Below the pieces are notes generated by a model that ran no database searches, was not told the DNA's origin, and was given only the letters and a program-made list of their open reading frames with translations. Below, piece after piece: positions 14,012-31,054 of a stretch of 32,000 nucleotides of DNA (position 1 is its first letter; each line of letters opens with the position of its first letter). Source of the stretch: Iodobacter violaceini (GTDB lineage: Bacteria; Pseudomonadota; Gammaproteobacteria; Burkholderiales; Chitinibacteraceae). Position numbers and translations under genes: made by a program. Location of the stretch: NCBI RefSeq assembly GCF_011601265.1, contig NZ_JAAOLX010000017.1, positions 1-32,000 of the forward strand. Reading direction: 5' to 3'.

Positions 14012-15361
14012 ATGTTGAAAGCCAAACGTGTTTTATGGGGCGAAGGGATGTTCCTTCGCCCGCAGCATTTCCAGCAGCAGTCTTTATTGCAGGATTATCA
14101 ACAGGCTGAAACGCGGCAGTTGCTCAGCCGCCACAGCTGGGGCTTGCAGAAGTTTCAGATTGACGAAGTTGCCCTGCGCGGCGGCCAGGTTCGCTTAGAT
14201 TCACTCTCGCTTTTATTCAGGGATGGCAGCCTGTTTCAGGCCCCGCAATCCGAGCCGCTGCCCTTATCCCGTAATCTGAATGATTTGCCGCAAGTGGGTG
14301 TGAGCACCACACTTTATGCCTGCCTTGCCGAGCTGCAACCCTATGGCGGCAACACGCAAAGCAATGAAAATACCGCATCGCGCTCTACCCGCTACCGCAG
14401 CGCCCATCAGGGTGTGGCCGATTTGTACACGCAGGCGCTGGAAGCCGATCTCACCACGCTGGAGCTGGATGTCCGCCTGATGGTGGAAGAAGAAAACCGC
14501 GATGGTTATGAAGCAGTTCCACTCGGTAAATTAGTGAAGGACGCCACAGGCCAGTGGTCTTTGGGGGCCGGTTTTTACCCGCCCTCCACCACCGTCAGCG
14601 CCATTCCTGAGCTCAGCCAGAATCTGCGCCGCTTATTGGATATTTTGCTGGTTAAAAGCCAGGCACTGGCCGGTGCTCACCGCGAGCGCGCTAAAAATGT
14701 GATGGAATACGGCACCACCGACATCGCCTCCTTCTGGCTGCTGCACACGGTGAACCGCAACTTTGCCCGCATCAATCACTTGGTTAAGTGTGAGCCACTT
14801 CACCCTGAAGAGCTTTATCGGGCCCTTGCCGAATTCTGTGGCGAATTGCAGACATTCTCATCGGTTTACACCCTGGCCGATATTCCGCCTTACCGCCACG
14901 AAGCCCTGCACGACAGCCTGCTGGTGCTGGATGTACAGATCCGTGAATTGCTCGATACCGTGATTTCAGCGCGTTACGCTGTGATCCCGCTCACATCACC
15001 TAAGCCTTCATTCCATATTGGCCGCCTGGAAAGTGATCGCTTCCTTGAGAATGTTGACTTCTATCTGTCGATTCAAAGCGAGCAATCGTCATCCAGCATC
15101 ATTGAAACTGTGCCGCTTAAATTTAAAATTGGCGCGCCGGACGATGTGGATAAGATTTTGAACTCGGCCATGCGCGGTGTCAGCATGTCCTATGCGGCGC
15201 AAACGCCTTCGGCTATTCCAATCCGCGTGGGCAATCATTATTTTGCCTTTGAGCCTAAGGGCGATATTTATCAACGCATGCTGCAATCGCGCAGTATTTG
15301 TATTTATGTTCCGCAATCGCTGTCGGATTTAAAACTAGAGCTGATTGCAGTCTTTCGCTGA
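14012..15361 (+). CDS. tssK: TssK baseplate protein
   Basis: 449 aa; the N-terminal RVLWGEGMFLRPQHFQQQ is the hallmark TssK motif. Confidence 0.9.
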   Translation: MLKAKRVLWGEGMFLRPQHFQQQSLLQDYQQAETRQLLSRHSWGLQKFQIDEVALRGGQVRLDSLSLLFRDGSLFQAPQSEPLPLSRNLNDLPQVGVSTTLYACLAELQPYGGNTQSNENTASRSTRYRSAHQGVADLYTQALEADLTTLELDVRLMVEEENRDGYEAVPLGKLVKDATGQWSLGAGFYPPSTTVSAIPELSQNLRRLLDILLVKSQALAGAHRERAKNVMEYGTTDIASFWLLHTVNRNFARINHLVKCEPLHPEELYRALAEFCGELQTFSSVYTLADIPPYRHEALHDSLLVLDVQIRELLDTVISARYAVIPLTSPKPSFHIGRLESDRFLENVDFYLSIQSEQSSSSIIETVPLKFKIGAPDDVDKILNSAMRGVSMSYAAQTPSAIPIRVGNHYFAFEPKGDIYQRMLQSRSICIYVPQSLSDLKLELIAVFR

Positions 15362-16929: not shown

Positions 16930-19900
16930 ATGGACATGAGCCAGCTTCTCGCCTCTTTTGCCGCAGCCTTTAATCAGGATAATCGCCTTATCAGCCTGCA
17001 ACTTGGCGACGGGGCGGCGTGGGGTGAGCAGCTGTTGCCGCAGCAGGTCAGTGGCAGCGAGGGGATGAATCAGGCTTACCGCTATCAGATTGATTGCCTT
17101 TCCCCCGATGGCAGCTTAGAGCTTAAATCCTTACTGGGCCTGCCCATTGTTTTATCTGTGGCCGATGCCAATGGCAGCGAGATTGAGCGCTGTGGTGTGA
17201 TATCCCAAGCGCAGTTGCTTGGCTCTGACGGGGGCTTTGCAAAGTACGCGCTAACGGCAGAGCCGCCGTTTGCTTTACTTCGCTACCGCCGCACTTCCCG
17301 CGTGTTCCAGGATTTATCCGTGCCGGATATCGTGAAGCAGGTACTGGCCGAGCATCAGGCTAAAAACCCCGTATTTGCAGCGGTGCAAACGCTGGATTTC
17401 AAATTATCCGGCACACACGGCCCGCGCTCTTATTGCCTGCAATACCGCGAGTCGGATTACGATTTCTTAGTGAGGCTGATGCAAGAGGAAGGCTTAGCGT
17501 GGCGCTTTGCTCATCTGCCGGGTGACAATCCCCAAGTGCAGCTCGTTGTCTTTGACGATGCCTTTGCCGTACCCGAGGCGCAAGACAGCCAGGTGCGCTT
17601 TCACCGCGCGGATGCCACGGAAGAATCTGATGCCCTTACCGAGTGGAACAGCCAGCGTCAGGTAGGCAGCAGCTCGGTATCGCTTGCCAGCTTTAATTAC
17701 AAAGCCGCCAACACCAGCCACACCGCCGATCATAGCGCTGTGGATCAGGGTGATGGCGGGCAGCAAATTCAATCCAGCTTTGAAGATTACGACGCCCAGA
17801 CGCACTATTACGCCAGCGATGCTGAAGGGCTAAGCCATTACGCTAACTTGCGTCAGCAGGCCTTGGATGGGCAAAAGAAAACGTTTACTGGCTCTGGCAC
17901 TTTGCGCAGCCTGCAAGCGGGGCAATGGTTCAGATTAGAAGACCACCCCGCACACGAATGGGATGCGGCCGAGCAGCGCGAATTCGCCATTACCCGGCTT
18001 AAATTCACCGCGCAGAATAATCTGCCGGTGGATCTGACCCAGCAACTACTGCAAGTCTCCCCCAGCCTGCTGGCCGCAAGCGCAGCTGACACCAAGCCCT
18101 ACCAGGCCGATTTCACCGCCCAAAGACGCGGCCAGCCGATCACCCCCGCCTTTGCCCATGAGCCGCTGAGTAAACCCAAAAGCTTTGGCGTACAAACCGC
18201 CACCGTGGTTGGCCCCGCCGGCTCAGAAGTGCATACCGACGAGCAAGGCCGGATTAAGGTGCAGTTCCACTGGCAGCGTGCCGCAGAGCACCCGGAGTTT
18301 GGCGCAAATCTGGATGACAAATCATCCTGCTGGATCCGCGTTTCTATGCCGAGTGCAGGCGCAGGCTTTGGCCACCAGTTTATTCCGCGCATCGGCCAGG
18401 AAGTTTTAGTCGACTTTATCGAAGGCGATATCGACCGCCCCATCGTTACCGCCGTGGTCTATAACGGCAGCCACCCGGTGCCGACATTCAGCGGCGCAGG
18501 CGCTTTACCCGCCAACAAAACATTATCCGGCATCAAGACCAAAGAGCATGAAGGTGGCCAATACGGCGAGCTGCTGTTTGACGATACCAAAGGCGAAGTT
18601 CGTACCAAATTATCCAGCGAGCATGGTAAAACTCAGCTCAATATGGGCTACCTGATCCACCCGCGCACGGATGGAAAAGGCGAACCACGCGGCGAAGGCT
18701 TTGAGCTGCGCACCGACAAACAAGGTGCCATTCGCGCCAGCGGCTTACTCATCAGCACCGAAGCCAAAGGCGGTGCATCCGGCAAACAGCTGGACCGCAG
18801 CCCAGCCCAAAGCCAGCTGGAATCCGCTTTAGACACCGCCAAAAACCTCGGCGAATACGCCACCAAACAACTCGCCGATAGCATAGAAACTGGCGAAGAT
18901 GATCAAACCGTCAAACCCGACAACAGCCCCGGCGACAAAGCCAGCCACGGCCATCTTTACCACCACGTGCACGCCAGCAAAAGCTTTGAAGCGGGTAGCA
19001 ACACGGATAAAGACGGCAAAACAAAATCTAAAGAGCAGGCTGGCCAGCAAAAAATCATCCTGCTGCACGGCGAGGACGGCGTAGCCATCACCACCCCGCA
19101 AAGCCAGACCCTCAGCGCAGGCAGCAACCTGGATCAGGTCGCCCAGCGCGACACCAACCAAAGCACCGGCCGCCGCTGGATTCACAATGTAGGCCAACAC
19201 ATCAGCCTGTTTACCGGCGGCATCAAAGACAAAATCACCATGAAGCTGATCGCCGCCAAAGGCCAGCTGCAAATGCAGGCGCAAAGCGACGACATCGAAA
19301 TCACCGGTGACAAAAACGTCAAACTCACCGCAATCAAAGGCAAGGGCCTCTTCAACGCCAAACAAGAAATCCTGCTCACCGCCGGCGGTGCTTATATCCG
19401 CATCAAAGGCGGCAAGATCGAGCTGCATGCACCGGGGAAAGTGAGCATTAAGGGCGGGAGCCATGATTGGAGCGGGCCGAAGAGCCAAAGCGTGCCTATG
19501 CCAACATTTAAAGGTAAAGATGGCCTTGGACAGTTAGAACTATTCCATCATTACCAAAATGCTGAAGCCATTAAAGGTGGCCAATATATTGTGACCGACT
19601 TAAAAGGTCAGGTTCATAAGGGCATGCTGGATGATAAAGGCTATGCCGTGATTGCAGGCTTGCCGATGGGTGCAGTCAGCGCTCAGTTTTTGAGTGACCC
19701 ACGGCAGACAAAAGCCCCCACAGGCACTTTTGAAACACCACTGCTAAAAGATGTTCCAAGCAAAATAGATACGGATGCCATTGCTAAACAAGCTTCTGCA
19801 CAATTAAGCAGTTTGCTGCCTGATGTGGCCAAAGCGCAGGGAATGGCAAGCACGCTATCTTCGCTTGACCCTGCTCAGGCAATGGCTGCGGCAAAGCAGG

Positions 19901-20265
19901 CTGCAGCAGGCCAAATAATGAGTCACGTTCCCCAAGGCATAGGCTCAGCTATTGGCAGTGCTCAAATGGCTAATACATTTGCATCAATGAACCCTCAGCA
20001 GGCAATGGATGCTGCTAAACAAGCGGCAGCTGGCCAGGCGATGAACTACCTGCCTAAAGAGGCGAGTTCTGCGGTTGGCAGTGCTCAAGGGATAGCAGGT
20101 TCACTATCCAACCCTGGCCAGGCTATGGATGCGGCAAAACAAACCGCTTCAAGCCAGGTAATGAGCCACGTGCCAAAGGAAATCAGCGCCGCTGCCGGGC
20201 AAGCCAATGCTTCTGCTCAACAAGCCCAACAAGTTAAACAAATGCTCGCTTCGCTCAAGAAGTAA
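16930..20265 (+). CDS. vgrG: VgrG spike protein (VgrG2) with ~250-aa C-terminal extension
   Basis: 1111 aa. The first ~855 aa are collinear with VgrG1 (same gp27/gp5 motifs: GRIKVQFHWQR, SCWIRVSMPSAGAGFGHQFIPRIGQEVLVDFIEGDIDRPIVTAVVYNG). An additional beta-rich segment and tandem repeats follow. Confidence 0.95.
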   Translation: MDMSQLLASFAAAFNQDNRLISLQLGDGAAWGEQLLPQQVSGSEGMNQAYRYQIDCLSPDGSLELKSLLGLPIVLSVADANGSEIERCGVISQAQLLGSDGGFAKYALTAEPPFALLRYRRTSRVFQDLSVPDIVKQVLAEHQAKNPVFAAVQTLDFKLSGTHGPRSYCLQYRESDYDFLVRLMQEEGLAWRFAHLPGDNPQVQLVVFDDAFAVPEAQDSQVRFHRADATEESDALTEWNSQRQVGSSSVSLASFNYKAANTSHTADHSAVDQGDGGQQIQSSFEDYDAQTHYYASDAEGLSHYANLRQQALDGQKKTFTGSGTLRSLQAGQWFRLEDHPAHEWDAAEQREFAITRLKFTAQNNLPVDLTQQLLQVSPSLLAASAADTKPYQADFTAQRRGQPITPAFAHEPLSKPKSFGVQTATVVGPAGSEVHTDEQGRIKVQFHWQRAAEHPEFGANLDDKSSCWIRVSMPSAGAGFGHQFIPRIGQEVLVDFIEGDIDRPIVTAVVYNGSHPVPTFSGAGALPANKTLSGIKTKEHEGGQYGELLFDDTKGEVRTKLSSEHGKTQLNMGYLIHPRTDGKGEPRGEGFELRTDKQGAIRASGLLISTEAKGGASGKQLDRSPAQSQLESALDTAKNLGEYATKQLADSIETGEDDQTVKPDNSPGDKASHGHLYHHVHASKSFEAGSNTDKDGKTKSKEQAGQQKIILLHGEDGVAITTPQSQTLSAGSNLDQVAQRDTNQSTGRRWIHNVGQHISLFTGGIKDKITMKLIAAKGQLQMQAQSDDIEITGDKNVKLTAIKGKGLFNAKQEILLTAGGAYIRIKGGKIELHAPGKVSIKGGSHDWSGPKSQSVPMPTFKGKDGLGQLELFHHYQNAEAIKGGQYIVTDLKGQVHKGMLDDKGYAVIAGLPMGAVSAQFLSDPRQTKAPTGTFETPLLKDVPSKIDTDAIAKQASAQLSSLLPDVAKAQGMASTLSSLDPAQAMAAAKQAAAGQIMSHVPQGIGSAIGSAQMANTFASMNPQQAMDAAKQAAAGQAMNYLPKEASSAVGSAQGIAGSLSNPGQAMDAAKQTASSQVMSHVPKEISAAAGQANASAQQAQQVKQMLASLKK
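19783..20262 (+). repeat. Four tandem 36-41-aa Ala/Gln-rich repeats at the VgrG2 C-terminus
   Basis: The units are AKQASAQLSSLLPDVAKAQGMASTLSSLDPAQAMAA, AKQAAAGQIMSHVPQGIGSAIGSAQMANTFASMNPQQAMDA and AKQAAAGQAMNYLPKEASSAVGSAQGIAGSLSNPGQAMDA. The last unit is AKQTASSQVMSHVPKEISAAAGQANASAQQAQQVKQMLASLKK. Confidence 0.85.
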
Positions 20266-20284
20266 TAGCCCTGCTTATACGGTA

Positions 20285-20314
20285 CAGCCATGGTCTAAAA
20301 CCATGCTGACTTTT
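20285..20314 (+). terminator. Weak stem-loop plus short T-run between vgrG2 and rhs (possible partial terminator)
   Basis: cagccatggt-ctaaa-accatgctg (9 bp with one bulge) is followed by acttttaaa. Confidence 0.25.
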
Positions 20315-20337
20315 AAATATTCGGAGACTTCGCCTCA

Positions 20338-23300
20338 ATGAGCGAAACAAGACAAGTTGCACATGCGCCCTATGGTAAAGAAACAGTTGCGGATACCCAG
20401 TCTGCCATAGGCAGTTTTGATACCTGGCTAAAGAAAGTTTCTGACAACCATGTTTCGCTTGATGACTTACAAACAGTCGCCAGCGCCCTGCCTGTGGTCG
20501 GTAATCTCATTGCTGCAGGAGATATGCTCGTCAATCTTTACGATATTTCGCAAAAGAAAGAGGGGGGGGATTTTGGAGACTGGATGGGGGTGGGCATTAA
20601 TGGCATAGGCTTGATCCCCGCTCCGGGTACGGCGGCACTGCGTATATCAATGCGCCCGGTACTTGGCAGCGTAAGACAAGCTTTAATTCGCGGCGGAAAA
20701 ACAGTAGGTCCCGCCTTGGTCGACGTTATTGTCAGCCATATTCTGGCCAGCGAAGCATTAGCCCAAAAAGCGGAAGACGCCGTTACAAAGATGCTGAATG
20801 TGATTTCACCCATGATGAAAGAAGTCGCCGACTTCGTTTCTAAAGTGATAGAGCAATTCACAACATTTTTAAAACAACTCATCAACGGCACATTAGGTAA
20901 ATACCGTGTTCCTGCGGGTAAAGCACCCAGCAAAGGGGAGTTTGTTCGCAATCCCGCAATTCGTTTAGGCAGCTTTTTTGGTGAAGCGTGCCAGTTTTAT
21001 CGTAAGGCGGTAGCTACTGTTGCATCTAAAGCAGCTTCTGCCCTGCTAAGCGATAAAGTAAAACAAACACTGACTGATTTACTTAACCACCTGAATAATT
21101 CAATTAAGCCGCAAATAGTTGGCAAGATCACCGCCCTGGCCGATGCAAAGGCCAAACAAAGCCTGGTATCCTTACTGACTCTGCTACTTGCCGCAATTAC
21201 AAAGGGCAAAAAGAAAGCAGCTGCTGGTGCTGTTGCCGTTGGCAAAACCACAAAAGTGGTAGCGAAACGTGCCCAGCAAGTGATTGAGCAAGTCAGCTCG
21301 CAAATCAAAGCCAAACTTAGCCCCAATGGCTGCAAAGAATGTAAAACCAAAGGCAAATCACGCAGTACAAAATCAATTGGCTATGCACTGGGTGATGAGG
21401 TTTTTAGCCACACCGATTTTAGCCTTAATGGTGTAATGCCCTTAGTTTGGCAACGTACTTATAACTCCAGGCTGGCCGCTTATGATCAGGGCGAGCTGGG
21501 CGCACGCTGGACATCCCCGCTATCTACCCGCTTTGATTTAATCAACGCAGAATCAGGCCCCATCTTGCGCCACTTTGATGCGGATGGCCGTAGCCTGGAT
21601 TACCCAGCACTTGCAGTGGGCGAGCACCATCAAGACCGCACTGAAGGCCTGATGCTTAGCCGTTTGGATGAAAACCTGCTGACCATTACCCGTGGCCATG
21701 AATTGCTGGAGGTGTACGAGCGCTACGAATCCCGCTTTATGCTGCGCATGCTGAAAGACCGTGCGGGCAATACGCTGGCGCTGAGTTACGATGCAGCGGG
21801 TTTATTGCAGCAAATCGATTTAAGCAGTGGCAGCAGCGCAAAATTTGAGCGTAATGCAGCGGGAAAAATCAGCCGTATTAGCACCCCCCCCAGCAAAGAG
21901 CTTCCTGCTGGGCGCGTGCTTGCTGAATACAGCTATAACGAGCATGGTGATTTAATCAGCGCCAAAGATGAGCACGGCAATCAGCGCGATTATCAATATA
22001 AAAACCACCTGATTACCCGCTACACCGATCGCACTGGCCGCGGGGTTAATCTGGAATGGGATGGCAGCAGCGCTACATCCAAAGCTATTCGTGAGTTTGC
22101 AGATGATGGCAGTAATGAGATCCGCCTAAGCTGGCACGACGACATCCGCCTCACCACCGTTCGCAATGCCCATGGCGATGAAACACTCTATTACTTTGAT
22201 GCGCTGGGCTACACCTATCGCATTATTTATCCCGATAACAGCGAAGAATGGCTGTTTCGCGATGATTATAAAAACCTAATCAAACACGTTTATCCCGATG
22301 GCAGCTCAGATCGTTATGAATACGATGCCAACGATAATCTGCTGCTGCATATTCGCCCCGACGATAGCACCGTGCAGATGGCTTACGATGATAAAGACCA
22401 GCTGATCCGCATTACTGATCCGCTGGGCAATATCTGGCTGCGTGAATACGACGACAAAGGCAATCTGCTTAAAGAAATCGATCCTAAGCAATACGCCACC
22501 AGCTATAGCTACAACCCGCAGGGCCTGCCTATCGCAATTAAAGACGCCAAAGGCGGCACAAAAAAACTGGCCTATTTACCCAACGGCCAGATTGCCAGCT
22601 TTACCGATTGCTCTGGCTCCTGCACCGAATGGCATTACGATGCCAATGGCCGCTTGTTAGAAACCCAGGATGCAGCAGGCAACCTCACCCAATATCGCTA
22701 TGGCAGCGATGGGCGTCTGGAGGCTGCTAAACAGGCGGATGGCACCGAAGCCAAATTGCAATTTGATGCCGAAGGCCGTTTGCTGTCGCACACCGATGCG
22801 CTGGGCCGCAGCACCCGCTATGGCTACGATAAAGCAGGCCGGATTCATTCCCGAATCGATGCGATGGGCCAGGAGCTGGCCTACCGCTACGACAAACTGG
22901 GCAGACTGACCGCACTGCAAAATGAAAACAGCGCCCAATATCGCTTTAGCTACGATCCTGTTGGCCGCTTAATCGAAGAAAACAGCTTTGATGGCAAAGC
23001 CACCCGCTATCATTATGCCGAAGCCAGCGGCCAGCTCTTAGAAGTGAACGAAGCAGGCCAGCTTACCCAGCTTAACTACGATGCCGCAGGCCGCCTTGCA
23101 CAGCGTAAAACGGGCAGCAGCAAAGAATCATTCCGCTACGATCCGGCTGGCCGCCTTGCCATCGCTAAAAACCGCTTTAGCCAGGTGGTGTTTAACTTTG
23201 ATGAAGTGGGCGATTTAACGCGTGAAGAGCACCATTACCAGCTCTTTGGCCAAAGCCAAACCCATATCTGGCAACACGAATACGACGAGCTGGGTAACCG

Positions 23301-24804
23301 CATCGCCAGCATTCGCCCCGATGGCCAACGCACCGACTGGCTGGTTTACGGCAGTGGCCATGTGCACGGCATGCTGTGGAATAAGCAAGAAATCACCAGC
23401 TTTGAGCGCGATAAACTACACCGCGAAACCGGCCGCAAACTCGCCAACCAGCTGCAAGCCCAAACCCAATACGACCCAATGGGCCGCATGCTGCAGCAAA
23501 CGCTCAGCGGAAAAACCAGCAGCAACCGCAGCTATCAATACGATCCGGTAGGGCAACTGCTGGGCATTAAAGACAGCCGTAAGGGCGAAACCCAATACCG
23601 CTACGATCCGGTAGGCAGGCTGCTTGCTGCCAACACACCAAAACATCAGGAAACCTTTGCCTTTGACCCCGCCAGCAATCTGCTCGACAGCGCAGGCAAA
23701 GCAGAAAACACCCTACCCAGCCAAACACCACGTATTCTGGATAACCTGCTGAAGCAATACGCAGGCACCCACTTTAAATACGACGCACGCGGCAACCTCA
23801 CCGAAAAACAACGCGGTGAACAGATCACCAAACTAAGCTGGGACGGCTTTAACCGCCTGAGTGAAGTGCAAACAGCCCAAGGCGTAACGCAATACTATTA
23901 CGACGCCTTTGGCCGCCGCATCGGCAAAGAAAACGCCCAAGGCCAAACCGCATTCATCTGGGACGGCGACGTGATCGCCCTGGAAAAAACCGCAAACCAA
24001 ACCCGCCATTACCTGTTCGAGCCCAATAGCTTTATACCGCTGGCGCAGATCGTCTCCGCCAACGACAGCGAGCAAGAACACACCGCCTACTACCACGTAG
24101 ACCACCTCGGCACACCGCAAACACTGAGCGATGAAAACGGCGAAATCGCTTGGAGTGCAGAGTACAAAGCGTGGGGTGAAGCGCAGGTCGTCATTAGTGA
24201 AGCCGCAAAAGAAGCCGGAATCAATAACCCAATACGCTTCCAAGGCCAATACGCCGACGAAGAAAGTGGATTGCATTACAATAGACACCGCTATTACGAC
24301 CCGGAGATTGGGCGGTTTATTAGTAGTGATCCGATTAAATTAGCGGGCGGCAGAAATTTACACCAATATGCTCCGAATCCTATTGGGTGGATTGATCCGT
24401 TTGGATTGGTGCACGAAACAGCACCTGGATATCACGTCTATGGATTATATGAGCCGGGTAAAAGTCCTGACCGAGGTGACTCTCCTTATTACGTTGGCAT
24501 AACGGATGATTTGGATAGGCGTAATATAGAACATGGTAAAAGTGGGCGCTTAGCAGGAGGAACCATGGAACCAATAATGAGAGATGTAGATTATGGTACT
24601 GCCCGTGGTGTTGAGCAGGCTAATATTGAGCATCATGGCACCAAGACAGGGACTATTGGACAAGATTTAAGCACAGCAACAACTTATGACGAAAGAGGAA
24701 ACAAAGTTGCCTCATTTGACCATAAAAATTCAACGCGTTGCCCCAAAAGGCAGCAGCACTTTGAAAATGCATATAACAATGAAATAAAACGCTTAAACCG
24801 TTAA
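20338..24804 (+). CDS. rhs: Rhs-family T6SS polymorphic toxin (no PAAR), GIY-YIG-like nuclease C-terminal tip
   Basis: 1488 aa. The Rhs shell starts near aa 346 (SIGYALGDEVFSHTDFSLNGVMPLVWQRTYNS) and has many YD repeats (YxYDxxGRL). The conserved core end is [39 protein letters not shown]...NPIGWIDPFGL, followed by a 131-aa variable tip. Confidence 0.95.
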   Translation: MSETRQVAHAPYGKETVADTQSAIGSFDTWLKKVSDNHVSLDDLQTVASALPVVGNLIAAGDMLVNLYDISQKKEGGDFGDWMGVGINGIGLIPAPGTAALRISMRPVLGSVRQALIRGGKTVGPALVDVIVSHILASEALAQKAEDAVTKMLNVISPMMKEVADFVSKVIEQFTTFLKQLINGTLGKYRVPAGKAPSKGEFVRNPAIRLGSFFGEACQFYRKAVATVASKAASALLSDKVKQTLTDLLNHLNNSIKPQIVGKITALADAKAKQSLVSLLTLLLAAITKGKKKAAAGAVAVGKTTKVVAKRAQQVIEQVSSQIKAKLSPNGCKECKTKGKSRSTKSIGYALGDEVFSHTDFSLNGVMPLVWQRTYNSRLAAYDQGELGARWTSPLSTRFDLINAESGPILRHFDADGRSLDYPALAVGEHHQDRTEGLMLSRLDENLLTITRGHELLEVYERYESRFMLRMLKDRAGNTLALSYDAAGLLQQIDLSSGSSAKFERNAAGKISRISTPPSKELPAGRVLAEYSYNEHGDLISAKDEHGNQRDYQYKNHLITRYTDRTGRGVNLEWDGSSATSKAIREFADDGSNEIRLSWHDDIRLTTVRNAHGDETLYYFDALGYTYRIIYPDNSEEWLFRDDYKNLIKHVYPDGSSDRYEYDANDNLLLHIRPDDSTVQMAYDDKDQLIRITDPLGNIWLREYDDKGNLLKEIDPKQYATSYSYNPQGLPIAIKDAKGGTKKLAYLPNGQIASFTDCSGSCTEWHYDANGRLLETQDAAGNLTQYRYGSDGRLEAAKQADGTEAKLQFDAEGRLLSHTDALGRSTRYGYDKAGRIHSRIDAMGQELAYRYDKLGRLTALQNENSAQYRFSYDPVGRLIEENSFDGKATRYHYAEASGQLLEVNEAGQLTQLNYDAAGRLAQRKTGSSKESFRYDPAGRLAIAKNRFSQVVFNFDEVGDLTREEHHYQLFGQSQTHIWQHEYDELGNRIASIRPDGQRTDWLVYGSGHVHGMLWNKQEITSFERDKLHRETGRKLANQLQAQTQYDPMGRMLQQTLSGKTSSNRSYQYDPVGQLLGIKDSRKGETQYRYDPVGRLLAANTPKHQETFAFDPASNLLDSAGKAENTLPSQTPRILDNLLKQYAGTHFKYDARGNLTEKQRGEQITKLSWDGFNRLSEVQTAQGVTQYYYDAFGRRIGKENAQGQTAFIWDGDVIALEKTANQTRHYLFEPNSFIPLAQIVSANDSEQEHTAYYHVDHLGTPQTLSDENGEIAWSAEYKAWGEAQVVISEAAKEAGINNPIRFQGQYADEESGLHYNRHRYYDPEIGRFISSDPIKLAGGRNLHQYAPNPIGWIDPFGLVHETAPGYHVYGLYEPGKSPDRGDSPYYVGITDDLDRRNIEHGKSGRLAGGTMEPIMRDVDYGTARGVEQANIEHHGTKTGTIGQDLSTATTYDERGNKVASFDHKNSTRCPKRQQHFENAYNNEIKRLNR
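24409..24804 (+). other. Rhs-CT toxin domain, GIY-YIG (URI) nuclease-like
   Basis: It directly follows DPFGL. PGYHVYGLYEPGKSPDRGDSPYYVGITDDLDRRNIEH gives GIY (VYGLY), YIG (YVGIT) and the conserved Arg. The later ARGVEQANIEHHG supplies the conserved Glu. GC content drops from here onward. Confidence 0.7.
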
Positions 24805-24823: not shown

Positions 24824-25510
24824 ATGGGCTGGTGGAATATACCCGATCAAAAAGATGCCGTTATTGGTGATGCGGTGCTGGATTCAATACGACATTTTTT
24901 AAAAGAATTTAGCCATGAATACATCGAAGATTTAGGCAGAAAACCTACCCTGCTTGAGCTTGAATACGCCTTATCACTGGCATTTAAAGTAAATGTAGAT
25001 GATGATATTGCCAGTGGTATGGAAGAGCTTGAAATTAAGCAAGTCGTATTAAAAACAGCCAAACGACCAAAGCGGTTTAAACCCGTACCGGGGGATTTAT
25101 TTGCCTTCCGCTATGATGAACAACGTTATGGTTTTGGTAGGCTGATCTCAAAATTAAGCATGGGAATGGTCGCGGAAATCTATGATTATTTTTCTGCCCA
25201 GCCTATATTCGACCCAAATTATACAGATAAATGGCTGATTAGCCCCGTAGTACTTAACCCATATGGTTTATTTGAATGTCGAAACGAAGGTGAATGGCTA
25301 ATTATAGGTAAAACGCCTAACTATGTTATCCCTAACAAATTCAATGATGTATTTTTTGTTACTGGTACCCCTGGCAAGCTCCAAGCAGTACGAGTGAACA
25401 ACTCTGATTTTGATATTAGTTTAGAGGAGGCCACTGGCCATAGAAGATATACCTATAGCTCTGATATTCAGATTAAAGAGCTTATTGCCGAAGCATTAAA
25501 AAACAAGTAA
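24824..25510 (+). CDS. Cognate immunity protein candidate (copy a), C-terminal half Imm26-like
   Basis: 228 aa, starting 19 nt after the rhs stop, with an AAGGA SD 7 nt upstream. PGDLFAFRYDEQRYGFGRLIS...MVAEIYDYF...GEWLIIGKTP resembles the Imm26 pattern as I remember it. The N-terminal MGWWNIP...D...GD..LD is reminiscent of DUF4259. Confidence 0.65.
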   Translation: MGWWNIPDQKDAVIGDAVLDSIRHFLKEFSHEYIEDLGRKPTLLELEYALSLAFKVNVDDDIASGMEELEIKQVVLKTAKRPKRFKPVPGDLFAFRYDEQRYGFGRLISKLSMGMVAEIYDYFSAQPIFDPNYTDKWLISPVVLNPYGLFECRNEGEWLIIGKTPNYVIPNKFNDVFFVTGTPGKLQAVRVNNSDFDISLEEATGHRRYTYSSDIQIKELIAEALKNK

Positions 25511-25516
25511 ACAAAC

Positions 25517-25547
25517 AGGGGGCAATAATATTGCTCCCTTTTTTTAT
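25517..25547 (+). terminator. Rho-independent terminator after immunity gene copy a
   Basis: agggggcaat-aat-attgctccct (10 bp including one G-U pair) is followed by tttttttat. Confidence 0.65.
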
Positions 25548-25565
25548 AGAATGGCTCGGGAGAAT

Positions 25566-25633
25566 AAAATGGGCGGGTGAAGTATACCCGATAAAAAAGA
25601 TGCCATTATTGGTAGTACGGCGCTGGATTCAAT
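25566..25633 (+). pseudogene. Degenerate 5' remnant of the immunity gene (third copy)
   Basis: aaaatgggcgggtgaagtatacccgataaaaaagatgccattattggtagtacggcgctggattcaat aligns with the first ~65 nt of 24824-25510. It reads M-G-G-stop. Confidence 0.7.
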
Positions 25634-26140
25634 GAAAAATAATTTAATAAAAAAATTAAAAAACACGGTTGGATTTTTGAGCATACTGATAAAAATAGTA
25701 AAGAAAAGGATAATAAAGAAATTGAAATAATTAAAAAAACATGCATCAACCTCTACAAATGGTGCTCTTTTTTTGATGCGTTATATAGCAGTGCAGATGA
25801 TGAATGGTTTTTATCTTTAAATGATTTTAGAAATAATTCCGACTCTTCTTTTTCATGGAATAAATTTGAGAAGATATGTATTGAATCTTGTTCTAGTCCA
25901 AAAGAAGAAATAGAGGTAAAAATTTTTTGGAGTGGTCATTTACCTATTTTTATGTCAACAAAAAGTGGATATCAATACTGGGCAATAAAAACAAGTGGTG
26001 AGAATATTGGGGCTATATATTACGGTAGAGAACCGGAGTTCGAAGAGGTAACCAAAATCGCAGAAAATTTCGACGATTTGATAAAAAAAATTAATTTATC
26101 TCTTGATACAAACAATAAGATACTTGGCATTGATTTTTAA
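25632..26140 (+). pseudogene. SUKH/SMI1-KNR4-like orphan immunity gene, frameshifted in an A7 run
   Basis: The reading frame is open from 25643 to 26140 (166 codons; the track only lists the last 62 aa). It contains ...SFSWNKFEKICIESCSSPKEEIEVKIFWSGHLPIFMSTKSGYQYWAIKTSGENIGAIYYGREPEFEEVTKIAENFDDLIKKI, like SMI1/KNR4-family proteins as I remember them (FW..hlP...s..g.Y.ylai......G.v..geePefEe...vA.sF..fl). The only plausible start, ATG 25632 (MKNNLIKK), is one frame off, and the A7 run lies at 25649-25655. GC is very low. Confidence 0.5.
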
Positions 26141-26205
26141 TGATTGTTTTTTTTATAAAATACAATCATTAAAATATAACATATGTGTTTTTTGAGGAGG
26201 CGGCA

Positions 26206-26892
26206 ATGGGCTGGTGGAATATACCCGATCAAAAGGATGCCGTTATTGGTGATGCGGTACTGGATTCAATACGGCATTTTTTAAAAGAATTTAGCCATGA
26301 ATATACCGAGGATTTAGGCAGAAAACCAACTCTGCTTGAACTTGAATATGCATTATCACTGGCATTTAAAGTAAATGTAGATGATGAAATTGCCAGTGGC
26401 ATGGAAGAGCTTGAAATTAAGCAAGTCGTATTAAAAACGGCTAAACGACCAAAGCGGTTTAAACCTCTGCCGGGTGATTTATTTGCTTTTCGCTATGACG
26501 AAAAACATTATGGTTTTGGCCGGTTGATCTCAAATGTCAGTATGGGAATGGTTGCGGAAATTTATGATTATTTTTCTGGCTCCCCTATATTTGATCCAAA
26601 TCGCTCAGAAAAATGGTTAGTTGATCCCGTATTACTTGATTCATTTGGCTTGTTTGAACGCAGGTCGGAAGGTGAATGGTTAATTATAGGAAAAACACCT
26701 GATTACGTTGCTCCTGAAAAATTCAATGACGTGTTTTTTGTTACTGGCACCCCTGGCAAGTTCCAAGCTGTGCGAGTTGATAATTCTAGATTTGATATTA
26801 GCCAAGAGGCAGCCATTGGCCATAGAAGATATTCAAGCTGCGGCGACACTCAAATAAAAGACCTTATTTCCGAAGCTTTAAAAAACAAATGA
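26206..26892 (+). CDS. Immunity protein paralog (copy b), diverged in the C-terminal half
   Basis: ATG 26206 is preceded by GAGGAGG; the track start 26185 is a GTG. The first ~100 aa are almost identical to copy a (3 differences by eye), and the remaining ~128 aa are roughly 75% identical. Confidence 0.7.
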   Translation: MGWWNIPDQKDAVIGDAVLDSIRHFLKEFSHEYTEDLGRKPTLLELEYALSLAFKVNVDDEIASGMEELEIKQVVLKTAKRPKRFKPLPGDLFAFRYDEKHYGFGRLISNVSMGMVAEIYDYFSGSPIFDPNRSEKWLVDPVLLDSFGLFERRSEGEWLIIGKTPDYVAPEKFNDVFFVTGTPGKFQAVRVDNSRFDISQEAAIGHRRYSSCGDTQIKDLISEALKNK

Positions 26893-26928
26893 ACGAACAG
26901 GGGGCAATATTATTGCTCCCTGTTCGTT
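26892..26928 (+). terminator. 17-bp hairpin after immunity copy b (homologous to 25517-25547 but longer stem, poor T-run)
   Basis: aacgaacagggggcaat-att-attgctccctgttcgtt. Confidence 0.5.
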
Positions 26929-26946
26929 TATAGAAGGATTTTGGAA

Positions 26947-27751
26947 ATTCATCTGGGACGGCGACGTGATCGCCCTGGAAAAAACCGCCGAACACACCCA
27001 CCACTACCTGTTCGAGCCCAACAGCTTTGTGCCGCTGGCGCAAATCGTCTCCGCCAACGACAGCGAACAAGAACACACCGCCTACTACCACGTAGACCAC
27101 CTCGGCACGCCGCAAACACTCAGCGATGAAAACGGCGAAATTGCGTGGAGCGCTGAATATAAAGCGTGGGGAGAAGCAAAAACCATTATCAGCGAAGCGG
27201 CTAAAACAGCAGGTATCAACAACCAGCTACGTTTCCAAGGCCAATACACCGATGAAGAAAGCGGCTTGCATTACAATCGATACCGCTATTACGACCCGGA
27301 GATTGGGCGGTTTATTAGTAGTAATCCGATTAAATTAGCGGGCGGAAGTAATTTACACCAATTTGCGCCGAATCCGATAAGTTGGCTTGATCCACTGTGG
27401 CTGGCACGTATTAAAAATGCAGTAGAAGGTGATCGCCGCCATCAAGAATTTAATGAAATAATAAAGGCTGAAAATACACATGCAAAAATTCAAAGTGAAT
27501 GCTATCTACGTGACAAAAATGGAAAGTCTGTTAAAGATCCCATTACAGGTGAACGCCGGCGTGTAGATACAGCTGTAATTGAAAATGGTAAGGCGAAAAC
27601 TTATGAGGTGACAAGTACTAGTGCAGATAAACAAGAGCAGCTCGCTAAAGAAGGTCGAATTATGGGAAATGGTGGAAATTACATCCGTGACCGTAGTACT
27701 GGCGAGTTAATTCCAACAAGTGGTCTTTCTGAAATTGTTAGGTTGCCATAA
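26947..27751 (+). CDS. Orphan Rhs C-terminal cassette 1 (5'-truncated, no ATG/SD), restriction-endonuclease-fold-like toxin tip
   Basis: Nucleotides 26947-27403 are >90% identical by eye to rhs 23952-24408 (FIWDGDVIALEKTA...[12 protein letters not shown]). The frame is open from 26933 but has only a GTG at 26966. The junction motif is DPLWL instead of DPFGL. The tip (27404-27751) contains RRVDTAVIENGKAKTYEVTS...Q..K, a PD-(D/E)xK-like arrangement. Confidence 0.8.
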
Positions 27752-28090
27752 ATGAATGAAAATTATTTAGTTTTAATGTCAATCAATGAATTTGTATCTG
27801 CCTATAAAACAACCAATGCTAAAGGGGAGATAATTGATGACGTCGAATCTCAAGAGATGGTGCGAAGATCAATAACAGCATTGATTAATTTTTTTGCTGA
27901 AAACAACCTGCTTAATGACAAAAAAATTACAGAAACAAACAGAGAACTTAGGAGAGATGACTTTACTCCTGAAGGTCTTGAATTATTTATAAAAAAGGGT
28001 GGGGCTTGGTTAAAATCTAAAGCATCAAAAAAAGATCCGCCAAATATAAAACTATTGGAAAAAGCGCTTTTTTATATAAAGAAAAATTGA
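27752..28090 (+). CDS. Candidate immunity protein for orphan cassette 1
   Basis: A 112-aa ORF whose ATG abuts the toxin stop (taaATG). It is low in GC, small and acidic/helical in character. No family was recognised. Confidence 0.55.
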   Translation: MNENYLVLMSINEFVSAYKTTNAKGEIIDDVESQEMVRRSITALINFFAENNLLNDKKITETNRELRRDDFTPEGLELFIKKGGAWLKSKASKKDPPNIKLLEKALFYIKKN

Positions 28091-28108
28091 GTTAGTTAAA
28101 GCAAGAGA

Positions 28109-28158
28109 GTATGTTCATATTGATATACGAACATGCTAAATTATTATTTTTATATTTA
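28109..28158 (+). terminator. Imperfect hairpin plus T-rich tail after orphan-1 immunity gene
   Basis: gtatgttc(a)tat...ata(c)gaacatgc is followed by taaattattatttttatattt. Confidence 0.3.
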
Positions 28159-28436
28159 TCCTGTTTTTAATTTGTATGTTTGGCGAGCCATATATTGTCA
28201 ATATTTCGGTGGATTATATAAAAACTTAAACACTTAATTACGTTTTGATCGTTTTTCTAATAAATCAGTAAAACCACTCCGTCGCAGCATATAAAACTTA
28301 CGGGCCATTAAAAATTAACTCGCCCCCCAAAAAAACGATTGTACAGAAATCAAAATCTACTGAAGTACAATAAATGCATCATGACTTCACTATACACAAA
28401 CTACTAATCCAACTTTTACACCTTAGGAGTAAAGGA

Positions 28437-29159
28437 ATGATGGATTTAAAAAAATTAATAGCACAGCATTTTCCCGATGACATAGTAGAGGTTAAAGGAA
28501 TTTTAAAATTCACTTTGCACATGCCGAACGAAAAAATAGTTCATTACCTAAATATTGGATGCACGGATAAAAATATTAATAATTTAGCTATTTGTGTTGA
28601 TCATGATGATGATGAGTTTGCAATCGATTTATTAAAAAATGATGTTAAGCCATTGGAAGCACCAATTACTATAATTAATACTGAATTTGAAGACAAAAAA
28701 TTTGACTCCATTTTAATGGCTAGTGGCTTATATCACCGTCAACTAAGAGGGATAGTTAACGAATATAGGAATAATTTTTTTCTTTGCTTACCTATTTTTA
28801 AATCAGAATTTTTTGGGAATGAGACGGAAAAAGATTTTTTAGATACATGTGCTAAATTCACACCCGTTTATAATTGGAATCGAGAGAAAAACCCAAAATC
28901 TGTTGTTGCATTTAGCAACCCTAAAACAGGGGGAGGCACCATAAAAAAAGGCATTGTATTAGCTTTTCCTACAATTAAGAGGGAAATAAATAATATGGAC
29001 GGTGTTGAAGATGGAACAATGTTAATTACAAACTACAAAAATGAGAAGATTGATATACGATCAAGCACTAAAAATTTTAGTTTGAAAACAAACAAGACAG
29101 ATTTAACACTAGGTAATGACGAGTTAGTCAACTATATTTGGGATTTTATATCTATATAA
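28437..29159 (+). CDS. Hypothetical protein (~240 aa), no recognisable domain; possible orphan immunity gene
   Basis: The track ORF 28374-29159 was trimmed to ATG 28437, which is preceded by taggagtaaagga. GC is very low (~28% by eye). No motifs were recognised. Confidence 0.45.
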   Translation: MMDLKKLIAQHFPDDIVEVKGILKFTLHMPNEKIVHYLNIGCTDKNINNLAICVDHDDDEFAIDLLKNDVKPLEAPITIINTEFEDKKFDSILMASGLYHRQLRGIVNEYRNNFFLCLPIFKSEFFGNETEKDFLDTCAKFTPVYNWNREKNPKSVVAFSNPKTGGGTIKKGIVLAFPTIKREINNMDGVEDGTMLITNYKNEKIDIRSSTKNFSLKTNKTDLTLGNDELVNYIWDFISI

Positions 29160-29254
29160 TTTTAAAAAAATATACTACAGAAAGGGTATTTTATGCTACA
29201 TAAAACGTGCTCTTGTTGTTGAGTTAACAAGAAAATCCGGCGGCAGATCTTGCA

Positions 29255-29375
29255 TTAACATATCTGACGATTTTCATCTCGTTTTATGATTCGGCAAACC
29301 GTTGAGTAATGCACGCAAAAATACATCGCGATTTGCTGCATGCTGGGAATAACTGGGGTCAGAGTAAAATTAATT
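29255..29375 (-). pseudogene. Possible remnant of a resolvase/transposase-type C-terminal helix-turn-helix
   Basis: The last ~40 aa of track ORF 29255-29791(-) read TLTPVIPSMQQIAMYFCVHYSTVCRIIKRDENRQIC. This resembles the HTH_7-type pattern (IA..fgVs.sTvyRil.). The rest of that ORF is merely antisense to the orphan rhs arm, so no catalytic domain remains. Confidence 0.25.
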
Positions 29376-29428
29376 CTGCTTTCTTTTGCTCTAAGAGGAT
29401 TTAATTCTTTTCCGACTCCTATTATTTT

Positions 29429-30490
29429 AAGCAATACGCCGAAACCCATTACAAATACGACGCCCGCAGCAATCTGATTGAAAAGCAACAAGGCGAGCAG
29501 ATCACTAAATTCAGCTGGGATGGCTTCAACCGCCTGAGCAAAATCAGCAGCCAAGCGGGCGAAACCAAATACTTCTACGACGTATTCGGCCGCCGCATCG
29601 GCAAAGAAAACGCTCAGGGTAAGACAGAATTTATTTGGGACGGCGACGTCATCGCCCTGGAAAAAACCGCTGAACAAACACGTCATTACCTGTTTGAACC
29701 CAACAGCTTTATACCGCTGGCGCAAATCGTAGAAAAAGGCGAAAGCAGCCACGCCGCCTACTACCACGTGGATCAACTTGGTACGCCGCAAACGCTCAGT
29801 GACGAAAACGGCGAAATCGCATGGAGCGCGGAGTAGAAGGCTTGGGGCGAAGCGCAGGTCGTCATTAGTGAAGCGGCAAAGACAGCCGGTATCAATAACC
29901 CACTACGTTTCCAAGGCCAATACGCCGATGAAGAAAGTGGATTGCATTACAATCGATACCGCTATTACGACCCGGAGATTGGGCGGTTTATTAGTAGTGA
30001 TCCGATTGGTCTATTGGGGGGATTTAATACCCATGCTTATGCGCCAAATCCGGTTGAGTGGGTGGATTCATTAGGCTTAGCTAAAGCTAATTATAGATAT
30101 AAGCATGGCCCAAATGGTGAGCTACGTAGTGCTACAGCGAAAATAACTCAAGCAGATATCGGAAAAGGAACTTGTACTAATTGCTCTTCAAGAGCAAAAG
30201 CACGGGCTCTTGGTGAAGGATGCGACGATGCTGGGCATGCCATTGGTAAGCAACTTGGCGGAGATGGAGGCGTAAATGGTACTTTTCCTCAAAACCCTAA
30301 TATCAATCGTGGTGTTTTCAGAGATTTTGAAAATGATACTGCACGCAGAGTTCAAGCTGGTGACAATGTAATTTTACGTGTCACACCAGTTTATAACGCA
30401 GGCTCTACAAGGCCACATGAAGTTATTTATCAACGTCGAGTCAATGGCGTAACTGAACGTCATGTTTTCAATAACCCAGGATGCCCTTAG
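29429..30490 (+). pseudogene. Orphan Rhs C-terminal cassette 2, interrupted by in-frame TAG; Endonuclease_NS_2 / His-Me finger-like toxin tip
   Basis: Nucleotides 29429-30079 align with rhs 23752-24405 (KQYAETHYKYDARSNL...FIWDGDVIALEKTAEQTRHYLFEPNSFIPLAQ...). The conserved WSAEYKAWGE reads WSAE-TAG-KAWGE (TAG at 29834-29836). The junction is DSLGL. The tip (30080-30490) contains [37 protein letters not shown]...[25 protein letters not shown], like PF13930-type nucleases (D.GHli...lGG.....N..pQ...lNrg....E......G..V.v.v...Y.g...RP). Confidence 0.8.
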
Positions 30491-30499
30491 GAGATTAAA

Positions 30500-30916
30500 G
30501 TGGACAAAGAATTTATGACTGCATTTTTATCAGAAATGCTCGATTGGGAAGATTGGTTTGATAACATCAGAAAATCAGAATCCTATAAAAATGATGTAAG
30601 CAATCAATCGTCATCAAAAGCTGAAGCAAAAGAAAAAGCCAAGGCCATTATTGATAAATACTTATCAATAAAAGCCATCTCCAAAAACGGAGAGGCATTT
30701 CTCGCGGTTCTGCCGACAGCAAGGCCCCGATATTTCTCCCAAGAAATAGTCACCATAGAAGAAGATGGTAAAAAAATAAAAGTAATCACCCGAAACACCA
30801 AAAGCCCAAAAGCAAGAATAATGTATGTGTTGCTTAAAGGTGAAAGTGGCCTAAAAATAAATGAAATATACTCATCTTATGCTGATCAAGAATGGGATAA
30901 AAAGAGCAGTTTATAA
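30500..30916 (+). CDS. Candidate immunity protein for orphan cassette 2 (possibly RhsIA/NTF2-like)
   Basis: 138 aa with a GTG start at 30500. AGGAG lies 6 nt upstream and overlaps the toxin stop; an alternative ATG is at 30515. The position is the main evidence, and the family call is tentative. Confidence 0.6.
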   Translation: MDKEFMTAFLSEMLDWEDWFDNIRKSESYKNDVSNQSSSKAEAKEKAKAIIDKYLSIKAISKNGEAFLAVLPTARPRYFSQEIVTIEEDGKKIKVITRNTKSPKARIMYVLLKGESGLKINEIYSSYADQEWDKKSSL

Positions 30917-31054
30917 GCCAAAAATATAGATTTACCTTTGAAGAAACGACGTAAAAAGGATGCAGGACACCGATTTTAGCTTACTTGAGGTGCTGCCTAT
31001 TGTCTAGACACGACAATATTGAGAACAAACTGGAAGCAGACCACGGTTAATTAA

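Follow-up and report, generated by a model that had tools for sequence, protein, structure and literature searches.

An Rhs protein without a PAAR domain carries a diverged Tse15-type clade domain downstream of a VgrG with an Ig-like extension

Here we describe an Rhs protein encoded in a type VI secretion system (T6SS) cluster of Iodobacter violaceini, within a 32-kb stretch of DNA (positions 1 to 32,000 of contig NZ_JAAOLX010000017.1; hereafter the window). The rhs open reading frame (ORF; 20338-24804, plus strand; 1488 amino acids (aa)) lies directly downstream of vgrG2 (16930-20265, plus strand; 1111 aa), which encodes a spike protein with Pfam Phage_GPD, Phage_base_V, T6SS_Vgr and DUF2345 matches. 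Judged by sequence homology, the N-terminal 345 residues of Rhs are a diverged member of the alpha-helical clade domain family of Acinetobacter baumannii Tse15 (Hayes et al, 2024, Nat Commun 15:8709; PMC11461821). The best-supported reading, which we judge to be likely, is that this clade/FIX-type domain would tether Rhs to the C-terminal extension of VgrG2, be cleaved but stay bound, and be delivered with the toxin. The N-domain, the cleavage motif that follows it and the VgrG Ig-like domain all show homology to their counterparts in relatives, and the vgrG-rhs pairing is conserved.

Results

The Rhs N-terminal domain is homologous to the Tse15 clade domain

An exhaustive phmmer search with the N-terminal domain (20338-21372, plus strand; aa 1-345) against 1.84 billion cluster representatives recovered 82 relatives at E ≤ 1e-3, 57 of them at E ≤ 1e-10, with alignments that begin at query residues 2-10. 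All relatives that extend past the domain run on into an Rhs shell, and the remainder are short fragments. The domain thus shares with all longer relatives its place at the extreme N-terminus, immediately before the shell. The closest of these relatives is 36% identical; identity to Chitinibacteraceae proteins is 36-39%, the domain is at most 39% identical to anything in the searched collections, and an exact-sequence look-up of the Rhs protein returned no record. A word-indexed homologue search with the single N-domain returned nothing, and with profiles A1 (described below) and A3 it returned only 6 and 10, its candidate list being saturated by the low-complexity Ala/Lys stretch.

To build profile A1, 22 relative N-domains were cut at the shell boundary and aligned, so that the profile contains no Rhs shell. 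Against the PDB, A1 matched Tse15 (8UY4/8UXT) with an E-value of 2.8e-25, profile positions 7-348 aligning with Tse15 residues 12-330; the match spans the entire Tse15 clade domain (resolved residues 14-333), and the next PDB match was a designed helical bundle (E 0.0098). An independent hmmsearch scored Tse15 residues 30-334 at 97.6 bits, versus at most 10.5 bits in 5000 shuffles. Using intermediate sequences from mislabelled A. baumannii chromosomes in the plasmid collection, BLASTP aligned the N-domain with that of a second A. baumannii Rhs (E 3e-35, 27% identity over 386 columns) and with a 98%-identical Tse15 (E 2e-9). Moreover, with the full-length Rhs protein as query, phmmer found in the PDB an alignment to Tse15 (8UXT/8UY4) that starts at query residue 17.

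Structure prediction from the A1 alignment with AlphaFold gave an all-helical model of 11 helices and no strands, with a predicted local distance difference test (pLDDT) score of 67.7, versus 38.6 for the single sequence. Residues 191-225 and 295-345 are disordered in the A1-based model and align with the unresolved Tse15 loops 190-203 and 288-297. Foldseek matches to the PDB were weak (E 0.66), with Tse15 at their top in both probability (0.91) and TM-score (0.38). A previous reading of the window from the letters alone (the sequence-only reading) had called the N-terminal region an unrecognised domain. As far as Pfam and NCBIfam go, the term "unrecognised" stands: residues 1-345 have zero Pfam matches and zero NCBIfam matches even at E ≤ 0.1. 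Beyond these two collections the claim is not supported, as the A1 profile match and the score above shuffles make the region a full-length homologue of the Tse15 clade domain.

A predicted autocleavage motif lies at the junction with the Rhs shell

The N-domain abuts the Rhs beta-cocoon shell (21373-24408, plus strand; aa 346-1357), which ends in the aspartyl-protease motif PIGWIDPFGL (aa 1348-1357). Pfam places DUF6531 from aa 347, 13 RHS_repeat stretches and the RHS core at 1250-1282, and NCBIfam places Rhs_assc_core at 1276-1357; among PDB entries, the shell matches 8QJA with an E-value of 1.2e-257 and Tse15 with 6.9e-215. With its YD-repeat shell, RHS core, PxxxxDPxGL motif, variable toxin and downstream immunity gene, the protein has the features of an Rhs/YD polymorphic toxin.

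Cleavage of the Tse15 clade domain occurs at a motif of the form (S/N)Ix4G(T/A)Ex3HxD, with Ser335 at P1' and Glu343 essential (PMC11461821). A regular-expression search located this motif in Rhs at 21373-21417 (plus strand; aa 346-360, SIGYALGDEVFSHTD; S346-I-GYAL-G-D-E354-VFS-H358-T-D360), where, apart from Asp at the T/A position, it matches the published one including Glu354, His358 and Asp360, and it is conserved in 26 N-domain family members. The predicted scissile bond lies between K345 and S346, with Glu354 as the putative catalytic residue. The sequence-only reading had placed the start of the shell at about residue 346, in agreement with DUF6531 at 347 and a cleavage motif from S346; since a Tse15-type motif sits exactly at the domain/shell junction, that boundary coincides with the predicted scissile bond.

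The N-terminal domain has no PAAR, prePAAR or MIX motif

No PAAR domain (PF05488) was found in residues 1-345 by Pfam, NCBIfam or regular expression, and a search for the prePAAR motif AARxxDxxxH found not even an AAR tripeptide. Regular expressions for the three MIX motifs, hRxGhhYhh, shhPhR and hh(F/Y)SxxxW(S/T), were likewise negative in this region. For the N-terminus of the Vibrio parahaemolyticus RhsP type, the N-domain alone had no match to 8H8A/8H8B at E ≤ 10 and profile A1 had none at E ≤ 1; a weak full-length alignment of Rhs to these entries is carried by the shell. These results bear out the sequence-only reading, which had seen no PAAR, prePAAR or MIX motif upstream of the shell, and the composition of residues 1-345 (A 12.5%, K 10.4%, V 9.6%) agrees with its description of an Ala/Lys/Val-rich region. 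That reading had also proposed looking for a cryptic PAAR-like fold in residues 1-345. The check came out negative: the family-based AlphaFold model is all-helical with zero strands, and a cryptic PAAR fold is excluded.

The spacer between vgrG2 and rhs (20266-20337, 72 nucleotides) was read directly and holds a ribosome-binding site (GGAG) before the ATG and no ORF. With the vgrG2 stop at 20265 and the rhs start at 20338, this gap leaves no room for an intervening gene, in line with the earlier observation that no PAAR, Eag or DUF4123 gene separates the two. Over the whole window, a Pfam scan of all plausible ORFs found no PAAR or Eag/DUF1795 protein.

Two hydrophobic stretches form a conserved, putatively FIX-like core

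Column conservation in A1 identifies residues 28-113 (20419-20676, plus strand) as the most conserved core of the N-domain, with the best-conserved blocks at residues 41-60 and 81-120. Two residues, R102 and R106, are invariant, and eight more (W30, P52, A59, D62, W82, G91, P94 and P107) are nearly so. The core contains both of the Gly-rich hydrophobic stretches reported earlier, which we recover as Kyte-Doolittle maxima (19-aa window) of 1.66 at residues 47-65 and 1.22 at residues 83-101, borderline values for a transmembrane helix. The conserved charges within these stretches argue against transmembrane helices of the prePAAR type; the two stretches are part of a conserved (FIX-like) core. 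The second aligns with Tse15 residues ~79-133, and Tse15 residues 79-133 are needed for VgrG15 binding in two-hybrid assays (PMC11461821).

FIX was defined as an N-terminal marker of T6SS effectors, about 80 aa long (residues 43-121 of V12_14465), in non-Rhs PoNe effectors. Its gene usually comes straight after vgrG, its fusion partners are mostly toxins that target nucleic acids, often nucleases, and effector delivery depends on it (Jana, Fridman, Bosis & Salomon, 2019, Nat Commun 10:3595; PMC6688995). The conserved block at residues 28-113 has the same size and position, and its hydrophobic helices fall where Phobius calls one or two transmembrane helices (~42-65, ~94-120) in FIX proteins listed in the accessible part of the supplementary tables (PMC6688995). 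As with FIX effectors, rhs begins 72 nucleotides downstream of vgrG2 and T6SS genes share the window. Single-sequence and profile searches with the N-domain reached no non-Rhs FIX protein. In the same accessible tables, A. baumannii strains are mentioned at least 110 times among FIX-containing genomes, and the Burkholderia gladioli Rhs protein WP_013700163 is not among the entries listed (PMC6688995). More recently, the Tse15 clade domain was reported to correspond to the FIX domain (NAR 2026, PMC13617354). FIX membership of the Rhs N-domain would therefore follow from this literature-based equivalence with the Tse15 clade domain, and because the 2026 papers call the Tse15-like domain FIX-containing, the sequence-only statement that no FIX-like motif is present is probably wrong.

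C-terminal to the core, residues 289-345 (21202-21372, plus strand) form a basic linker that contains AVAVGKTTKVVAK and a CKEC motif and is modelled with low confidence (pLDDT < 50 across residues 295-345). Residues 293-310 (KAAAGAVAVGKTTKVVAK) align with Tse15 loop 288-304, which is unresolved by cryo-electron microscopy and was modelled as a beta-strand that pairs edge-to-edge with the VgrG15 Ig-like domain (PMC11461821); from this alignment, we infer that residues 293-310 may correspond to the Ig-pairing loop. The CKEC motif (CxxC; 21331-21342, aa 332-335) precedes the predicted cleavage site by 11 residues. At least 70% of the N-domain family keep C332 and K333, and a CxxC is common to many relatives. 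The VgrG-Rhs fusion 8QJA has the sequence DCKECR at the equivalent position, where Tse15 has a single Cys. The papers that we examined describe no function for the CxxC, and the preprint of Kielkopf et al. does not comment on it.

The VgrG2 extension contains an Ig-like domain related to that of VgrG15

In VgrG2, DUF2345 ends at residue 851, and similarity to VgrG1, the second VgrG of the window, continues up to residue 860; a 250-aa extension follows, which has no Pfam match and no PDB sequence match. Its first part is an Ig-like (TTR-like) domain (19510-19704, plus strand; aa ~861-925), the predicted docking site for the Rhs clade domain. BLASTP aligned residues ~861-923 with VgrG15 residues 847-909 (E 2e-6, 33% identity), and the published Ig-like domain of VgrG15 comprises residues 853-907 (PMC11461821). 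We recovered VgrG15 in one of the collected loci (L008) and verified it by seven of seven published residues (L999, N1000, L1003, S1004, Q1007, M1008 and L1011). Two further A. baumannii VgrGs, each encoded ahead of a clade-Rhs gene, have Ig-like domains that match that of VgrG2 as well (E 1e-21 and 2e-20).

The tail of the extension (19867-20232, plus strand; aa 980-1101) is Ala/Gln-rich and presumably helical, and consists of three tandem 40-41-aa repeats (aa 980-1020, 1021-1060 and 1061-1101) of the form [DN]PxQAMxAAKQ...SAxGxA. Tandem Repeats Finder reports no DNA-level repeat here, as the repeats are too diverged. The closest VgrGs (Iodobacter and a metagenome-assembled genome) have tails without such repeats, and the tails of related VgrGs are likewise A/Q/G-rich but variable and unrepeated; the triplication looks specific to this window and is a minor feature. 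The VgrG15 tail carries a mapped two-hybrid determinant at residues 976-1014 (PMC11461821). The idea that the VgrG2 repeat equals this binding segment was dropped, because a hidden Markov model (HMM) of the repeat did not score above shuffles in the tails of VgrG15 and the two other A. baumannii VgrGs.

Ig-like VgrGs recur upstream of clade-Rhs genes

Our comparison drew on 18 loci from other organisms, which represent 16 distinct genomic places (L003-L005 are one locus seen three times). In 12 further relative loci the upstream gene could be scored by BLAST. In 11 of these the clade-Rhs gene directly follows a vgrG whose product has the Ig-like domain; the 11 come from A. baumannii (L006, L007), Chitinolyticbacter, Iodobacter, a metagenome-assembled genome, Pseudomonas, Variovorax, Burkholderia and one further assembly. 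The twelfth scorable locus is that of VgrG15/Tse15 (L008), which matches by pairwise comparison only. Loci without an upstream VgrG (L001, L003-L005, L017 and L018; L016 has too little upstream sequence) indicate that the pairing is frequent, not obligatory. The window extends the pairing of Ig-like VgrGs and clade-Rhs proteins across beta- and gammaproteobacteria.

In B. gladioli BSR3 (L020, plasmid bgla_4p, 2899-10617), where the gene order is tssM-dotU-PAAR-vgrG-rhs, the VgrG has the Ig-like domain and almost no tail. With the Ig-like domain kept and the tail nearly gone, this protein points to the Ig-like domain, not the tail, as the constant partner; sequence comparison of the loci suggests that the Ig-like domain is constant with clade-Rhs proteins and the helical tail variable. 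Locus L002 has a stand-alone PAAR gene (14292-14555) downstream of rhs.

Two further loci show unusual VgrGs. In Variovorax rhizosphaerae (L015, 35-1129), the Ig-like domain is followed by a ~200-aa domain with an HExxH-like AHETGH sequence and no A/Q-rich tail. This protein, encoded upstream of a clade-Rhs gene, may be an evolved VgrG whose C-terminus resembles a metallopeptidase. In Iodobacter sp. CM08 (L010, 7604-9841), the clade-Rhs gene is immediately preceded by a chimeric ORF in which part of an Rhs shell is fused in frame to the C-terminal half of a VgrG; this probably reflects past recombination or an error of assembly.

A model for loading of Rhs onto VgrG2

We favor a model in which the clade/FIX-type domain replaces PAAR and would tether the toxin-filled Rhs cocoon to the Ig-like extension of VgrG2, and probably also to its tail, without an Eag or DUF4123 adaptor. 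The clade domain would be cut from the shell between K345 and S346 by Glu354, stay non-covalently attached, and travel with the weakly GIY-YIG-like C-terminal toxin when the T6SS fires. Tse15, which has neither PAAR nor chaperone, cuts itself into clade, cage and toxin; VgrG15 is pulled down with Tse15, which requires VgrG15 residues 831-1064, and the two interact directly in a two-hybrid assay (PMC11461821). Similarly, Chromobacterium violaceum RhsF (CV_1431), encoded after vgrG3 (CV_1432), has a FIX-containing N-domain instead of PAAR and no chaperone; RhsF co-immunoprecipitates with VgrG3, which has a TTR-like C-terminal domain, and depends on VgrG3 for delivery (JBC 2026, PMC13324451). By analogy with these two pairs, VgrG2 and Rhs would be expected to make physical contact, and Rhs to autocleave and be delivered. 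Homology to two experimentally studied systems thereby lends support to what the sequence-only reading had proposed, namely that a PAAR-less Rhs is loaded directly on the extension of the upstream VgrG with no adaptor or chaperone.

Several observations weigh against this model. Identity of the N-domain to Tse15 itself is low (24%), and phmmer of isolated residues 1-345 against the PDB gives only a chance match (E 0.66), so that the Tse15 link depends on a profile or on intermediate sequences. In the cleavage motif, Asp replaces the Thr/Ala of the Acinetobacter consensus, as it also does in other family members and in 8QJA. The VgrG2 tail has no sequence similarity to the VgrG15 tail, where the repeat HMM stays within the range of shuffles. 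Finally, three other places encode a clade-Rhs protein without an upstream VgrG, and look orphan or degraded.

We weighed three other accounts of the N-terminal region. The N-domain could be mainly membrane-active, its Gly-rich helices inserting in the target inner membrane to carry the toxin to the cytoplasm, with VgrG docking secondary or mediated elsewhere. A translocation role of this kind has been proposed for prePAAR transmembrane domains. Both hydropathy peaks fall in the best-conserved blocks of the family, Phobius makes its transmembrane calls in the FIX proteins listed in the accessible supplementary tables, FIX accompanies mostly nucleic-acid-targeting toxins (PMC6688995), and in A. 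baumannii the cage is secreted far less than the clade and toxin fragments (PMC11461821). Against this, Tse15 is soluble as a recombinant protein and its clade domain folds into a bundle of 12 helices that packs on the cage (PMC11461821; PDB 8UXT, 8UY4), the would-be transmembrane segments are borderline in hydropathy and carry conserved D62, N56, R102 and R106, and the Tse15 region aligned with the second stretch is needed for VgrG15 binding. A membrane role would moreover add to docking, not exclude it, and as the main function of the domain we consider it improbable. Much the least credible is the view that the N-region has no function, being a fast-evolving leader or the product of a wrongly called start, and that it resembles Tse15 through low-complexity helical composition. 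The Ala/Lys/Val-rich composition, the poor single-sequence model and the empty word-indexed search fit such a view, but the many relatives aligned from residues 2-10, the invariant or near-invariant W30, P52, D62, W82, G91, P94, R102, R106 and P107, the 97.6-bit true match far above the shuffles and the ribosome-binding site before the ATG effectively refute it.

Alternatively, a PAAR protein or an adaptor whose gene lies beyond the window could bridge the Rhs N-domain to the tip of VgrG2, making the VgrG2 extension irrelevant to recruitment. Stand-alone PAAR genes do lie beside the module in B. gladioli BSR3 and L002, two PAAR proteins co-immunoprecipitate with C. violaceum VgrG3 (PMC13324451), and the window covers only 32 kb and is without tssA, tssF, tssG and clpV. 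Yet the determinants of Tse15 delivery map to the C-terminal region of VgrG15, with a direct interaction (PMC11461821), and the Ig-like VgrG domain co-occurs with clade-Rhs proteins in both beta- and gammaproteobacteria. The vgrG2-rhs operon has no adaptor gene, whereas VgrG1 has its own DUF4123 protein, and a separate PAAR most simply caps the spike. It is very likely that the genome encodes such a tip PAAR outside the window, like those of the B. gladioli and L002 loci, which is compatible with extension-mediated loading; that it would recruit Rhs in place of the extension seems to us quite unlikely, more so than a mainly membrane-active domain. Loading through the VgrG2 extension remains our preferred model.

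The module lies in a T6SS cluster with a second VgrG and an array of orphan rhs cassettes

The T6SS cluster lies in the window, where a Pfam scan of the ORFs identified tssBCEJKLM, hcp and tagF. The minus strand encodes a tagX-like peptidase, tssM, tagF, tssB, tssC, hcp, an OmpA-like gene, vgrG1 and a DUF4123 gene, and the plus strand tssJ, tssK, tssL, tssE, vgrG2, rhs and an Imm26 immunity gene. None of tssA, tssF, tssG and clpV was found within the 32 kb, so further T6SS genes must lie elsewhere. In DNA sequence, vgrG2 shares 81-85% identity with a vgrG of Iodobacter sp. CM08. VgrG1 (1577-4234, minus strand; 885 aa) and VgrG2 are 84% identical up to residue 860, and VgrG1 has no extension; 3' of the vgrG1 gene lies the sole DUF4123 adaptor gene of the window (690-1565, minus strand; Pfam). 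With VgrG1 beside a DUF4123 adaptor and VgrG2 bearing an extension, this one cluster would encode both adaptor-mediated and extension-mediated loading. A cargo effector for VgrG1 would be expected but is not seen in the window: on the minus strand, positions 1-690, which follow the DUF4123 gene, hold no long ORF, and contain two short, similar lipoprotein-like frames ('...SC..PEDTS[IV]PGGLTGLNHTKV...'), one of them broken by stop codons.

The C-terminal toxin of Rhs (24409-24804, plus strand; aa 1358-1488) matches Pfam GIY-YIG with an E-value of 0.021, under the curated cut-off, and its sequence GYHVYGLY...PYYVGIT resembles the GIY-YIG signature. It is followed by the cognate immunity gene of the Imm26 family (24824-25510, plus strand; Pfam E 2e-6), and the toxin is possibly a nuclease paired with Imm26. 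From 24824 to 32000 the window has the look of a typical Rhs "graveyard", with orphan rhs C-terminal/immunity cassettes downstream of the main rhs gene. The Imm26 gene is present in two copies (24824-25510 and 26185-26892), and orphan rhs C-terminal fragments occur at 26966-27751, with an immunity gene of its own at 27752-28090, and at 29942-30490 (Endonuclea_NS_2), with an immunity gene at 30500-30916 (Imm-NTF2). A 5'-truncated rhs shell runs from ~31050 past the right end of the window.

Discussion

Rhs toxins are described as being loaded in one of two ways, through PAAR or through a FIX/clade domain that attaches to a VgrG extension dedicated to it (PMC13617354), and the Rhs protein described here has its nearest studied counterparts in the second group. 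Like Tse15 of A. baumannii AB307-0294, it combines a clade domain of ~335-345 aa (helical in Tse15 and predicted to be so here), a cocoon and a toxin at the C-terminus. The N-domains of the two are homologous, a Glu-dependent cleavage motif occupies the same junction, the PxxxxDPxGL motif is shared, and neither locus has PAAR, Eag or DUF4123 in the module. Beyond their 24% N-domain identity, the two differ in having GDE here instead of G(T/A)E, and CxxC versus one Cys before the cleavage site. The three-repeat VgrG2 tail is unrelated in sequence to that of VgrG15, the GIY-YIG-like toxin and Imm26 immunity protein differ from those of Tse15, and the host is a betaproteobacterium related to Iodobacter. 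Other Rhs groups are closer to our protein than Tse15 is, including the second A. baumannii Rhs (27%) and Chitinibacteraceae proteins (36-39%).

The likeness to C. violaceum RhsF/VgrG3, for RhsF as judged by its published description, includes the order Neisseriales, a vgrG-rhs-immunity operon, an N-domain (~337 aa, helical and Tse15-like in RhsF; predicted to be helical here) and the absence of a PAAR domain or chaperone gene; VgrG2, like VgrG3, has a TTR/Ig-like domain, followed by an extension that is helical in VgrG3 and presumably so in VgrG2. The toxins differ, being an ADP-ribosyltransferase in RhsF and nuclease-like here. The sequence-only reading had envisaged a possibly undescribed loading mode, a view overtaken by the structure, autocleavage and VgrG15 binding of the clade domain, published in 2024, and by RhsF/VgrG3 in 2026 (PMC13324451, PMC13617354).

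With PAAR/prePAAR Rhs effectors (Pseudomonas protegens RhsA 7Q97, Photorhabdus laumondii Tre23 7PQ5, and those of Serratia and Enterobacter), our protein shares a homologous cocoon, double autocleavage as predicted here, and spike-mounted delivery as proposed here. Those effectors use an N-terminal PAAR on the VgrG tip, and carry prePAAR with transmembrane helices shielded by Eag, none of which is present here. A cargo carried on a beta-sandwich (TTR/Ig-like) domain appended to VgrG also recalls VgrG-Tle1 of enteroaggregative Escherichia coli, in which Tle1 binds the VgrG TTR domain by edge-to-edge strand pairing (cited in PMC11461821 and PMC13324451). Tle1, in contrast, is a phospholipase, not an Rhs protein, and the VgrG2 extension has no sequence match in the PDB.

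Overall, this Rhs protein is an ordinary, diverged addition to the Tse15/RhsF class of PAAR-less Rhs effectors and opens no new mechanism. Features particular to the window are minor, namely the triplicated VgrG2 tail repeat and the CxxC before the cleavage site, the latter common to relatives and 8QJA. We regard two further possibilities as long shots: the repeats might be a multiplied effector-binding element, and the hydrophobic core might have a further membrane-translocation role. If true, the tail repeats could change the avidity of Rhs loading or its stoichiometry, with up to nine sites per trimeric spike, and the extra membrane role of a FIX-like core would serve cytoplasm-acting toxins and be undescribed.

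The window adds a diverged Chitinibacteraceae member to the class and carries a lesson for annotation: Pfam and NCBIfam lack models both for the clade/FIX delivery domain and for the Ig-like docking domain of VgrG, so that genome scans keep flagging such Rhs proteins as having an unknown N-terminus. A constant Ig-like partner with a variable tail, as the compared loci suggest, would be useful in the design of binding experiments and in the engineering of VgrG-Rhs cargo systems.

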